Shown piece by piece: positions 7,595-14,905 of a stretch of 14,905 bases of DNA; within the stretch, counting starts at the first letter, position 1, and each line of letters begins with the position of its first letter. The notes under the pieces were generated by a model, which saw only the letters and a list, made by a program, of their open reading frames with translations, made no database searches and had not been told where the DNA came from. Origin of the DNA: a virus. Its lineage: Duplodnaviria > Heunggongvirae > Uroviricota > Caudoviricetes. Where the stretch lies: the IMG/VR virus record IMGVR_UViG_641522650_000010, one strand, 5' to 3'. Position numbers and translations under genes: made by a program.

Positions 7595-7670
7595 TGGTGG
7601 CCCTTGCTGGATTTGAACCAGCGACCTGGCGATTATGAGTCGCTCGCTCTCACCACTGAGCTAAAGGGCC
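7595..7670 (-). tRNA. tRNA-Ile2 (anticodon CAU, lysidine type; ileX/ileZ-like); tRNA-Met cannot be excluded from the anticodon alone
   Basis: Manual fold: perfect acceptor ggccctt/aagggcc, D-arm gctc agtggtga gagc, anticodon loop cTCATAa, T-arm gctgg ttcaaat ccagc, encoded CCA; closely resembles E. coli ileX as I recall it. Confidence 0.8.
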
Positions 7671-9332: not shown

Positions 9333-9713
9333 TTACTTTTTTAGCAGCCAGTCGTCCATCTCCAGTCTTACCCCCAGCACAGACAAACATCCGTCAATAA
9401 ACCCTTCGGCTATCTGCATCTCAATTCGTATTGCTTTTTCGCTTTTCTTTCTCGTCCTGGCTATCTGTCTTTTTGATATTCGCAACAAATAATGAGCAAT
9501 GAGAAGCGAATACTCCTCAGGTTTTTTCTGCTTCAGACGAGCAAGACAGTTTTCAATGATAAGTCCGTCATCATCGCAGCAGGCCGGACGTGGTTTAGTG
9601 GCAGATGGTAAAAGTCCTTTGAATCCGGCAGCGATCGGAGAATAGTCCACCCCGGTGTTACCACTTGCAGCCCATGCCCCCCAGCGTTCAAGAACCATCT
9701 GAATATCACGCAT
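9333..9713 (-). CDS. Late-gene antitermination protein Q (QuuD-like)
   Basis: ATG at 9713..9711 with GGAG RBS; product MRDIQMVLERWGAWAASGNTGVDYSPIAAGFKGLLPS...CCDDDG... resembles the small Q antiterminators of E. coli cryptic prophages as I recall them. The ORF-track TTG start at 9728 adds 5 residues and is less likely. Confidence 0.75.
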   Translation of the reverse strand: MRDIQMVLERWGAWAASGNTGVDYSPIAAGFKGLLPSATKPRPACCDDDGLIIENCLARLKQKKPEEYSLLIAHYLLRISKRQIARTRKKSEKAIRIEMQIAEGFIDGCLSVLGVRLEMDDWLLKK

Positions 9714-9730
9714 CAACTTTCTCCACAAAA

Positions 9731-11556: not shown

Positions 11557-11946
11557 TCAGGCGGCTGCACCCGCCGTTTTCTCGTACTTACTGATAGTGA
11601 TCTCGACCTTCCCTTTCGGGATAACCGGTCCCCACTCCACCAGCATTCTTTTCACCTGACTGTCGTCTTCCCACACACCCGCGTGGGTCAGGGCGTCAAA
11701 CAGCGCCTTGTTATAGTTGTCCAGATCGCGGATCCGGTTATCCGGAGGAAACAACACGATCTCCACTGAAGCAGGTGCCGACGTTGGTTTCGGCAGACGA
11801 CGTAACTGCTCAACTATTGCTGCGCACGCCGCGCTCTGGAATTTTCGCCCCGCCGCGCTTATCAGGCTCTTACCAGCAAACGCCCCTTTGTTGGGGTGTC
11901 GCCAGTACGTGTTCACGCTGGGCGGAAAAGGCAGTATTAGCTTCAT
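11557..11946 (-). CDS. rusA: Holliday-junction resolvase RusA
   Basis: 129 aa; MKLILPFPPSVNTYWRH... and DLDNYNKALFDALTHAGVWEDDSQV match RusA-family motifs; ATGA-type overlap with the upstream gene. Confidence 0.85.
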   Translation of the reverse strand: MKLILPFPPSVNTYWRHPNKGAFAGKSLISAAGRKFQSAACAAIVEQLRRLPKPTSAPASVEIVLFPPDNRIRDLDNYNKALFDALTHAGVWEDDSQVKRMLVEWGPVIPKGKVEITISKYEKTAGAAA

Positions 11947-12596
11947 GCCACCATCTCCCTGACCAGTTTTTCCGCCTGCTGGCGAACCTGCGCCAGAAAT
12001 GCCTCACCACATGCCTCAAGTTCATCGCGCCCGATGTAGCTGATTGCCGGTCCCTTCCAGGTCTTGTCGAAAACAGCAATAGCACCAGCGAAGAAAGCAC
12101 CTGTTGGCACCTGCTTTTCGTCTTTCGGGATAAACCAGGCAGGCAGTTCAAAACCAATACGCCCGCGAATAAAAGCAATATGATCTGCATCTTCCGGCCA
12201 CCACACTTCGCTGGTGGCAGCTTTGATCAGGAAAACATAGCGCCCGCCTTTATCACGCATGGCACTGGCATGCTTCATGATGTAACGCATGCCGATGATG
12301 TATTGCCCCTCATGCTGACTGGCGCGGCTGTACGGGGGATTGCCAAAGGCAGCACCTTTAAGCTCCGCAAGACGTTCTGACCAGTCATGCGCCAGCGCGT
12401 TGTCTTCCGCCGTGTAATACGCGGCACATTTGGCGTTATCACCGTCAGTGAACAGATCCAGAACAAACGGACCAAACAAGGTGTTAATTCCCCAGAAAAT
12501 GTTGTCCGGCGTGCGCCACTGATCGCCCACTTCCTTCAGTTCATGGGCTGGTTTGTTCCGCAGTTCCACCAGCGCCTGGCAATATTTATTACTCAT
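11943..12596 (-). CDS. Phage-type DNA N6-adenine methyltransferase (Dam-like), orphan
   Basis: ATG at 12596..12594 gives 217 aa MSNKYCQALVELRNKP...; catalytic motif FGNPPYS; stop/start overlap TAATG with the upstream gene. The ORF-track GTG start at 12629 is less likely. Confidence 0.8.
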   Translation of the reverse strand: MSNKYCQALVELRNKPAHELKEVGDQWRTPDNIFWGINTLFGPFVLDLFTDGDNAKCAAYYTAEDNALAHDWSERLAELKGAAFGNPPYSRASQHEGQYIIGMRYIMKHASAMRDKGGRYVFLIKAATSEVWWPEDADHIAFIRGRIGFELPAWFIPKDEKQVPTGAFFAGAIAVFDKTWKGPAISYIGRDELEACGEAFLAQVRQQAEKLVREMVA

Positions 12597-13084
12597 TAAG
12601 CCCCCACGTAATTCCCTGACAGATACCACTCATCACCCGATACAGCGCGCTTACTGCTTTTCCGTAAACACTGCTCACGACGCGCCAGAAAATTGTTTCG
12701 TTCTGGCTGGGAGTGGCTTTCACGGAATGCCGCCATCCACACCGTTGCAGCACGACGGTATAAGCCCCTGGACTCCAGTTCTTCCGCCTGGCGGGTCAGG
12801 CACAAAATCTCCCGCGGGTCGTTAGTGCCGACATAGAAATTGCGCACAGGTCTGGTTTCACGAACTGGTTGCGGTTCCGCCTCCTGCGCTCTCTCAGTCA
12901 GGCGCGGGAAATGTCTGCGTGTATCCCCTTCACAACGGTGAGCCACACGACCACTCTGACGTAATTTGCTTGCTGACTGCAGAACGCACTGCCGTGAGTA
13001 ACCTGCAAAAGCATCCGCAATGTCTCCGGAAGTACACCCCGGATGGGCTTCAATGAATTTCTGAACTTCATTCAAAAGACTCAT
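12596..13084 (-). CDS. PerC-family-like putative transcriptional regulator
   Basis: 162 aa; C-terminal half has ESRGLYRRAATVWMAAF...REQCL, resembling the GLWRRAA..W....R..CL signature I recall for PerC/Pch proteins; ATGA overlap with the O-like gene stop. Confidence 0.45.
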   Translation of the reverse strand: MSLLNEVQKFIEAHPGCTSGDIADAFAGYSRQCVLQSASKLRQSGRVAHRCEGDTRRHFPRLTERAQEAEPQPVRETRPVRNFYVGTNDPREILCLTRQAEELESRGLYRRAATVWMAAFRESHSQPERNNFLARREQCLRKSSKRAVSGDEWYLSGNYVGA

Positions 13085-13905
13085 AATCCCCCCCTGAATC
13101 CTGCCGGGATCTGGCTGTAGTCCACGTTGTCGTAACTGGCTTTGAAGTACGGGTCCTCGCGTCTGGCTGCAGATACCGCAGGAACTTCCCAGGATTCTTC
13201 GAAATGACGATCTGGACCAAAGAACGTGACAGCCTGTTTCACAAATTGTGTGCCGCTATTGCCCATCGCAGATACCCAGCCCGCGTAGCGTTTCACACCT
13301 TCCAGCATGGTTTCGGGGTTTACCCCCTCGTTCAAACGGGCTTTCCAGGCTTTGAAGGCTGCAGATTTTGAATTGCCACCAGCACGTTTGGGATATGCCA
13401 GCCATGCCTGCTCAAACTCCGGAGAGTATTCCGGTCGGTTTGAACGAACTCGCACGGACTCATCAACTGATGCACCAACAGCTATTGGTTCATTGACTGG
13501 TTCTTTGACTGGTTCAAAAGAGTGACTGGTTCTGGGTGAATCTCCTGCACTACCCCTTGGTGCAACTCCTGCACTACCTGGTGAATTTGCTGCACCAGAT
13601 AGTGAATTATTTGCACTACCCCCTAGTGAATCTCCTGCACCATCAAGATGAAGGAGATAGATATTACTTGAGTTACCTTTTTCACCTTTCCGGGTGACTT
13701 TTTTTACCCGCCCGGACTCACAAAGGGCCGCAATATGATTCATCACAGAACGTTTGCTAATCTCGCACTGGTCAGCAATATGCTGGTAGCTGGGCCAGCA
13801 CTCACCCTGATCGCTGGCATTATCAGCCAGCTTAATCAGAACCAGTTTTCGCAATGGATTTCCCACTCGAATTTTCATCGCTTTAACCATCAGCTCCATA
13901 CTCAT
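13081..13905 (-). CDS. Replication initiation protein, O-like (N-terminal HTH, Gly/Ser/Ala-rich linker encoded by iterons, C-terminal domain)
   Basis: 274 aa; RBS GGAGGTG; N-terminal HTH-like LRKLVLIKLADNASDQGECWPSYQHIADQCEISKRSVMNHIAAL; repetitive linker GDSLGGSANNSLSGAANSPGSAGVAPRGSAGDSP coincides with nucleotide direct repeats, as with lambda O and its origin. Confidence 0.6.
   Translation of the reverse strand: MSMELMVKAMKIRVGNPLRKLVLIKLADNASDQGECWPSYQHIADQCEISKRSVMNHIAALCESGRVKKVTRKGEKGNSSNIYLLHLDGAGDSLGGSANNSLSGAANSPGSAGVAPRGSAGDSPRTSHSFEPVKEPVNEPIAVGASVDESVRVRSNRPEYSPEFEQAWLAYPKRAGGNSKSAAFKAWKARLNEGVNPETMLEGVKRYAGWVSAMGNSGTQFVKQAVTFFGPDRHFEESWEVPAVSAARREDPYFKASYDNVDYSQIPAGFRGGL
13535..13645. 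repeat. About five imperfect direct repeats (iteron-like, 21-24 bp) inside the O-like gene; candidate replication origin
   Basis: Recurring GTGAAT...CTCCTGCAC(T/C)ACC units at about 13535, 13559, 13580, 13601 and 13624; moderately AT-rich DNA follows at 13645-13700. Confidence 0.5.
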
Positions 13906-14243
13906 GCAGCACCTCCGAGATGCTTCATGTTTTTTCCGGAGCGAAAGGCTATAAGCGGCATACTGATGCGGTAATTACGGCCCAGCGGTTCACAAATCAC
14001 CTTCTGACATTCACGGTCAACCAGGCTAACACGTAGAACATGCCCTGCAGGCGTGGTGTACTACTGACCCGGACGAGGACAACGGAAAGTCTGATTGGTA
14101 AACCGTTTGAAAATATTCCGGATCATTTGCGCCCCCTTACCTCTGAAGGGTTCAGCGACAAATTTATGAGGCAGGCCAGTGCCGAAGCATCATTAATATA
14201 GTCATACAAGCTAACAGCCAGCGGAGATTCGGCTTTTGCCAAC

Positions 14244-14905
<662 letters not shown>

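Follow-up and report, generated by a model that had tools for sequence, protein, structure and literature searches.

The yfdN locus

The window, that is, the whole stretch of DNA that was analysed, comprises 14,905 nucleotides of a prophage of the Caudoviricetes (IMG/VR virus record IMGVR_UViG_641522650_000010). The gene studied here is read from the minus strand and is flanked by a replication-initiator-like gene and a DNA methyltransferase gene. The features of the locus are as follows.

14252-14905, minus strand: open reading frame of an IS3-family transposase with an rve integrase core (Pfam rve), running off the end of the window
13081-13905, minus strand: upstream replication-initiator-like gene, with HTH_36 and weak DnaD_N matches in Pfam
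12596-13084, minus strand: yfdN-type coding sequence for a two-domain protein of the PerC family, with 162 aa and a TAA stop
12905-13084, minus strand: residues 1-60 of YfdN, predicted N-terminal winged helix-turn-helix (AlphaFold2, Foldseek, weak HMM matches)
12833-12898, minus strand: residues 63-84, inter-domain linker, predicted to be disordered, variable in length and sequence
12638-12817, minus strand: residues 90-149, predicted three-helix domain of the PerC/ANR type (Pfam, AlphaFold2, conservation)
12599-12637, minus strand: residues 150-162, C-terminal tail with the subfamily motif W-Y-L-S/A-G-x-Y-V-G (alignments A2 and A3), low pLDDT
11943-12596, minus strand: downstream gene of a Dam-family N6-adenine DNA methyltransferase (Pfam Dam, E 9.8e-46), whose ATG overlaps the yfdN stop codon (TAATG)

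According to the ORF list and the sequence itself, the yfdN reading frame is intact, with an ATG at 13084-13082 and a TAA at 12598-12596, and it shares 99% identity with a common allele (P0001). The window gene shares approximately 96% DNA identity with yfdN of E. coli K-12. Of 5426 complete E. coli genomes, 2668 contain a match to its 489 bp, in most cases with a DNA identity of 95-99%. The matched genes bear the RefSeq label 'yfdN: PerC family transcriptional regulator', and in some of the matching strains, ET12567 among these, a yfdN-yfdM gene pair is annotated. The gene was also identified in the phages SfIV (gp42), SfV (orf40), SfII, mEp460 and Ayreon and in several Stx2c- and Stx2a-converting phages, while a more distant homologue is present in Salmonella phage ST64B. 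These comparisons identify the window gene as an intact yfdN orthologue, yfdN being an already known and annotated prophage gene of E. coli. This identity, taken jointly with the two-domain architecture predicted below, can be regarded as nearly certain.

Previous mentions of the gene are scattered. A search of the accessible literature for functional studies of YfdN found none, the mentions being screens or expression lists. The gene was termed 'the K12 unique PerC homologue' and was removed from a ler-lacZ reporter strain merely as a precaution (PMC5931665). Its overexpression resulted in a glycogen phenotype in a screen, and in the nitric-oxide transcriptional profile of strain CFT073 it was up 12.6-fold, alongside other prophage genes (PMC5320621). 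In addition, yfdN is a predicted member of an interaction cluster for 'negative regulation of transcription'.

Membership in the PerC family

An earlier reading of this DNA, made from the sequence alone, had proposed a PerC-like regulator, without naming its strand, on account of a PerC/Pch-like signature in the C-terminal half of the protein. The HMM search bears this out, as the Pfam PerC profile PF06069 matches YfdN residues 98-151 (12632-12793) with an E of 9.8e-10 and 39 bits, above the curated gathering cut-off of 22.6 bits, and the resemblance greatly exceeds what chance would produce. The two quoted motifs, GLYRRAATVW (residues 107-116; 12737-12766) and REQCL (residues 136-140; 12665-12679), belong to a core A..LE..GLxRRAA..W ... 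R..RR..C that can be aligned with the prototype PerC (alignments A2 and A3). The resemblance is further upheld by BLASTP against PerC of enteropathogenic E. coli (EPEC; plasmid pMAR2), in which YfdN residues 98-153 and PerC residues 6-61 share 32% identity (E 2e-7). Over its full length, YfdN is covered by PHROG 1324, 'transcriptional activator' (E 5.9e-77).

The family appears to be small, with just 156 clusters retrieved at E <=0.001 by a family-profile search of 1.84 billion representative proteins. The matches are split in two architectures, namely two-domain proteins of ~138-165 aa (alignment A2) and PerC-only proteins of ~57-105 aa (alignment A3); all 46 two-domain relatives match Pfam PerC. 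The conserved core of the domain is represented in YfdN by A100, L103, R111, A112, W116, R136 and C139. The AlphaFold2 models of the PerC domain have a pLDDT of about 90-96, and when modelled alone the domain is predicted with confidence to form a three-helix bundle, with a pLDDT of about 95 over the helices. Many truncated or fused variants of yfdN are present in databases. One relative (P0104) is a chimera, in which the winged helix of the neighbouring replication protein replaces that of YfdN and is fused to the PerC domain. With its 162 aa and extra N-terminal domain, YfdN lies outside the small single-domain type, which has about 60-105 aa and an 'MGI...FR' tail. Because of this additional domain and the replacement of the tail by WYLSGNYVG, YfdN can be assigned to a distinct PerC subfamily.

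A predicted winged helix in the N-terminal half

The N-terminal half had previously been left unassigned, and we agree as far as Pfam and NCBIfam are concerned, since neither provides a confident match; a fold is proposed for it here. In an AlphaFold2 model of YfdN that was built with 21 homologues, residues 1-60 form the elements of a winged helix, with H1 at 3-13, H2 at 19-25, the recognition helix H3 at 31-44 and a beta-hairpin wing at 47-60, and the block-mean pLDDT over these residues is 83-91. The linker that follows has a pLDDT of <50, and its columns in alignment A2 are rich in indels. When the N-terminal unit was compared with the PDB by Foldseek, it matched the winged helices of the ArsR/SmtB, MarR/MepR/SlyA, BlaI/MecI and PerR regulators (rmsd 1.7-2.9 A over 58-67 columns, probability 1.0). 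The corresponding E values of 0.03-0.2 are only modest because the winged-helix domain is short.

Profile searches point in the same direction. The window YfdN weakly matches phrog_1687 MarR (E 5.5e-5) and BilQ (E 1.5e-3). Among the 46 two-domain relatives, Penicillinase_R is matched by five and MarR_2 by four, other matched profiles being HTH_24, MarR, DsrD and PaaX. Some relatives of YfdN are named 'MarR family' or 'helix-turn-helix domain-containing' by NCBI. Across the 46 relatives, lysine and arginine are enriched at positions 31, 32, 36 and 40, which lie on a single face of H3, and in the wing at 49 and 57. Position 49, a histidine in the window protein, is K/R in 72% of relatives. When the family alignment was used as a profile against the PDB, nothing was matched even at E 10, and the YfdN family therefore has no solved relative. 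Based on the model and these matches, residues 1-60 of YfdN are assigned to a predicted winged helix-turn-helix that probably binds DNA, and this predicted and hitherto unlabelled domain of the yfdN subfamily appears to be described here for the first time.

Relationship between the PerC and ANR domains

The C-terminal domain of YfdN is also related to the ANR family. The ANR profile NF033650 matches the whole protein with an E of 9.2e-5 and 22.2 bits, which is below the NCBIfam cut-off of 32, and the match covers model positions 5-51 of 54. For an 80-residue C-terminal fragment the E improves to 1.3e-5. The same profile is matched by 33 of the 37 PerC-only relatives, with a best E of 6.3e-12, and by EPEC PerC with an E of 1.7e-3. 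The predicted structures agree, as the PerC domain of YfdN superposes on the model of an Aeromonas-phage 'ANR family transcriptional regulator' with an rmsd of 0.6 A over 57 columns. ANR matches had been noticed earlier for one PerC-like protein borne on a phage-inducible chromosomal island (PICI) (PMC11773190). As judged from the profile matches, YfdN is homologous to the ANR family, yet it is not an ANR member by the cut-off. Since both the profiles and the predicted folds coincide, PerC and ANR constitute a single superfamily.

When the isolated PerC domain was compared with the PDB by Foldseek, it retrieved only MIT/TPR-like three-helix bundles of the protein-binding kind as weak matches (E >0.5), and no DNA-binding fold was found among these PDB matches. 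ANR proteins, which show no apparent ability to bind DNA, were reported to bind directly to AraC-family regulators and H-NS (PMC4983702, PMC5570504). Silencing by H-NS is relieved by Pch, which has no homology to known DNA-binding proteins (PMC4764244). By analogy, the PerC domain of YfdN is a probable protein-binding module, and the contact mode of the ANR proteins would be the best mechanistic model for it.

Genomic context

The yfdN gene occupies a position between tightly packed genes. Its ATG overlaps the TGA of the upstream gene (ATGA) and has a Shine-Dalgarno-like run rich in G ahead of it. The order on the minus strand is the HTH_36 replication gene, yfdN, Dam, RusA, KilA-N, DUF968 and Q (9333-9728), and it is matched in strain A1, in SfIV and in a relative of 24% identity. 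When the surroundings of yfdN were scanned for promoters and terminators, no promoter-like site was detected nearby. The neighbourhood of the 24%-identical relative corresponds from CI/Cro-like genes through to lysis genes. Downstream of a relative of 33% identity lie genes for an MT-A70 methyltransferase, a LexA-like protein, RusA, an antirepressor, DUF968 and Q, and a relative of 39% identity lies directly after a Phage_lambda_P gene. One further relative is found in an integrase-AlpA island of the PICI type, with no recognisable replication gene alongside. Thus, in three of the four informative contexts, which include relatives down to 24% identity, the gene is located just after phage replication genes. 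An analogue of lambda P, the helicase loader, was considered for YfdN and ruled out, as the Phage_lambda_P gene directly precedes one of the relatives.

The early-operon position that had been suggested for the gene is confirmed by the gene order in the window, in strain A1, in SfIV and in the 24%-identical relative. On this comparative basis, yfdN belongs to the delayed-early genes of lambdoid phages of the SfV/SfIV/mEp460/CPS-53 type, and its translation is coupled to that of its neighbours. To judge from synteny, a stable lysogen would not express such a gene of a pR-type early operon. Members of the family occur in Lelliottia, Citrobacter, Enterobacter, Cronobacter, Franconibacter, Erwinia, Kosakonia, Pantoea, Hafnia and Salmonella, most of which are not known to carry the LEE.

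Similarity of the window to other prophages ends at 14243. The window is covered to no more than 62% by any complete E. coli genome, and the junction at 14243/14244 had no exact match in the GTDB species representatives. Given this end point and the IS3-family open reading frame beyond it, the operon has been cut off from its immunity and promoter region. Elements of the IS66 and IS3 families fill positions 1-4780. With the upstream portion of its operon absent from the window, yfdN may be unexpressed in this copy.

Functional interpretation

The state of the window copy raises the question of whether its yfdN is a silent passenger of a decaying prophage, intact in sequence but deprived of regulated expression. 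The insertion elements at 1-4780 and past 14243 and the loss of the immunity and promoter region are consistent with such decay, as are the absence of any promoter-like site between the 14243 boundary and yfdN in the scan and the numerous truncated or fused variants in databases. However, the frame is unbroken, with 99% identity to the common allele, and the transposase gene of the insertion element is co-oriented, so that read-through transcription could be possible; we consider silence of this copy fairly unlikely. A different alternative is that YfdN is not a transcription factor but an accessory of replication or exclusion that fills a slot like that of Ren. In phage lambda, ren directly follows the replication genes, and three of the four informative contexts place the yfdN-type gene directly after HTH_36 initiator or lambda-P type genes. 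A weak PHROG match of residues 3-68 to a 'Ren-like exclusion protein' (E 0.0023) and the natural chimera that joins an initiator winged helix to a PerC domain would also fit this role. Nevertheless, the Ren match is marginal, one distant relative (that of the integrase-AlpA island) has no neighbour recognisable as a replication gene, and a yfdN-type gene that already has a P gene ahead of it cannot be a replacement for lambda P. Moreover, the PerC/ANR domain is known solely from contexts of transcription regulators, and a replication or exclusion role appears quite unlikely.

The remaining alternatives concern the target of the protein. According to the sequence-only reading, YfdN could mediate cross-talk from prophage to host by activating virulence regulons; a Pch-like activator would switch on regulons such as the LEE via ler. 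The PerC domain is common to YfdN and PerC/PchABC, the Stx2c- and Stx2a-converting phages carry yfdN, and PchABC are themselves prophage-encoded activators of ler (PMC5931665, PMC4764244). In the literature, LEE1/ler activation has been shown solely for PerC and PchA/B/C (PMC5931665, PMC4764244); strong activation of ler is limited to the group-1 proteins PchA/B/C, and PchD and PchE gave none or <2-fold (PMC5931665). Among PICI-borne PerC-like proteins, two left LEE1 unaffected and a third repressed it (PMC11773190). Hence the PerC homologues outside group 1 tested so far show little, no or the opposite effect on the LEE. (YfdN is not PchD or PchE of O157 under another name, as the published cloning primers encode different N-termini.) Furthermore, YfdN has no conserved PerC-only tail and carries an added winged helix, its gene lies inside an early operon rather than in a moron position with its own promoter, and it is widespread in K-12, in phages of Shigella and Salmonella and in Erwinia, Cronobacter and Pantoea, which are not known to carry the LEE. 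On these grounds, the proposed virulence cross-talk is unsupported, and a Pch-like activator is very unlikely. It is even more improbable that YfdN is a controller or specificity partner of the adjoining downstream methyltransferase. The TAATG overlap with the Dam-family gene would suit such a partnership, and distant relatives precede methyltransferases of differing Pfam families (MT-A70, D12 and Dam). On the other hand, SfIV and many E. coli prophages have a LexA-like gene in the next position and lack a methyltransferase, ~2.3 kb separate the two genes in one context (P0132), and lambdoid gene shuffling can yield adjacency without functional linkage.

Overall, the best explanation is that YfdN is a DNA-tethered regulator of the phage early operon, which we regard as reasonably probable. 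A possible sequence of events would begin with transcription of the early operon, upon which the winged helix would place YfdN on specific DNA. The PerC/ANR domain may then contact a nucleoid-associated or AraC-type regulator, with H-NS/StpA as the leading candidate. This contact could change local silencing or activation, mainly within the phage's own programme and with possible side effects on host genes. The mechanism is put forward tentatively, as DNA binding, protein partner and regulatory outcome are all proposed by analogy. Outcomes vary within the PerC family between activation, repression and no effect, and the regulatory direction of YfdN is therefore unpredictable.

More speculatively still, YfdN-type proteins might be DNA-tethered antagonists of nucleoid silencing, and PerC, Pch and ANR might form one superfamily with one contact-based mechanism, although we consider this generalization somewhat doubtful. 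If it is true, temperate phages of Enterobacterales would lift control by H-NS (or by AraC-type regulators) locally on induction, and a single contact mechanism would explain why PerC, Pch and ANR proteins activate, repress or do nothing at the LEE. With the winged helix, the yfdN branch would possess a clear DNA-binding element that is absent from Pch-type proteins, and the coincidence of PerC with ANR suggests that the mechanism they share is protein contact with H-NS or AraC-type regulators. The gene itself is routine and already annotated, belongs to a very common prophage family and carries little weight as a finding; the winged-helix label and the link between PerC and ANR are modest additions that may be useful for annotation and for work on PerC and Pch.

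Comparison with known systems

The closest counterparts of the window gene are its orthologues in K-12 (YfdN of CPS-53/KpLE1), SfIV (gp42), SfV (orf40) and mEp460, at about 96-98% DNA identity, followed by the ST64B homologue, which has 72% protein identity to the window YfdN across the C-terminal domain. All of these have the two-domain length of 162-164 aa, matching the window protein, and share its neighbours, with a replication protein upstream and a Dam or LexA-like gene downstream. Unlike in these counterparts, the window prophage is cut by IS elements. In addition, the window YfdN starts at an ATG two codons downstream of the annotated K-12 start and is shorter accordingly, the start region reading GTG-AGC-ATG in K-12 yfdN and GGG-ATT-ATG in the window.

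EPEC PerC (pMAR2/pEAF) and PchA/B/C of enterohaemorrhagic E. coli have a three-helix PerC core that is homologous to that of YfdN, and the consensus A-x2-L-E-x2-G-L-Y-R-R-A-A-x2-W ... R-R-x2-C is common to YfdN and PerC/Pch. YfdN, PerC and PchA/B/C are also all encoded on mobile elements. However, EPEC PerC is a single-domain protein of 89 aa, to which YfdN adds the predicted N-terminal winged helix. The tail of EPEC PerC reads 'MGLVNEKIFR' and that of most PerC-only relatives in alignment A3 'MGI...FR', whereas YfdN has no such tail. The perC gene is part of the plasmid operon perABC, and yfdN is situated inside a phage early operon.

For the ANR family, of which Aar of enteroaggregative E. 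coli (EAEC) is an example, the profile and the predicted structure indicate the same three-helix domain as in YfdN. ANR proteins are single-domain and <10 kDa, a size limit that YfdN exceeds, and YfdN is fused to a predicted DNA-binding domain. Lambda Ren shares with YfdN the slot after the replication genes and a marginal similarity (E 0.0023), but has no PerC domain. Finally, the MarR, ArsR and BlaI regulators appear to share with residues 1-60 of YfdN the bare winged-helix fold, while the dimerisation helices of the MarR type and the metal site of ArsR have no counterpart in YfdN.

A natural chimera and the neighbourhood of yfdN

Parts of the replication protein and of YfdN, whose genes adjoin in the window, also occur joined in one natural protein. 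By alignment, P0104 (186 aa, 13 member sequences) is a chimera in which the winged helix of the replication protein (HTH_36) is followed by the YfdN linker and PerC domain, the fusion being in register with its junction inside the wing ('TRRHF'). This suggests that the winged helices of the two proteins are interchangeable, or else that a simple deletion occurred between the adjoining genes.

For yfdN itself (window 12596-13084, minus strand), a run of seven G residues precedes the start codon (window 13085-13096, GGGGGGGATTATG), whereas K-12 yfdN carries GGGGGTGAGCATG at this place. The K-12 gene is annotated from a GTG two codons earlier, which accounts for its product of 164 aa as compared with 162 aa in the window. 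The next gene after YfdN-type genes often encodes a DNA methyltransferase, and its Pfam family varies between the window and the loci of the distant two-domain relatives:

window 11943-12596 (minus strand) and L006: Dam
L003: MT-A70
L005: D12 class

SfIV and numerous prophages of E. coli differ in that yfdN is followed there by a gene for a LexA-like protein rather than by a methyltransferase gene.

Prophage context

The prophage segment is flanked on both sides by insertion sequences (window 1-4780 and 14244-14905), and coverage of the window by any complete E. coli genome never exceeded 62%. The sequence may come from an organism rich in IS elements, for instance Shigella. The flanking elements are as follows:

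1-2389: IS66-family unit, complete-looking, three ORFs
2492-3310: IS3-family orfB
3507-4780: another IS3-family element, orfA/orfB pair, opposite strand
within 14244-14905: IS3-family transposase ORF, right end

The late region has the layout of a Stx-converting phage, in the order Q, N6_N4 methylase, tRNA-Met/Arg/Arg (window 7421-7670), DUF1737 and a nanS-p-like esterase. The usual place of stxAB corresponds to window 6919-7420, where there are just ~500 bp; this segment has a 96% contiguous match to lambdoid phages (PhiR5_1, PhiR12 series) whose names do not mark them as Stx phages, and the alignment of Stx2 prophage genomes to the window is broken there.

Comparison with the perA-perC operon

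On the EPEC plasmid pMAR2, the prototype perC shares one operon with perA (L009 17176-18756), which encodes an AraC-family regulator. Proteins of the ANR (AraC negative regulator) family are defined by the same pairing with an AraC-type partner, as 'anti-activators accompanying AraC family regulators', and the perA/perC arrangement fits the PerC-ANR homology obtained from profiles and predicted folds.
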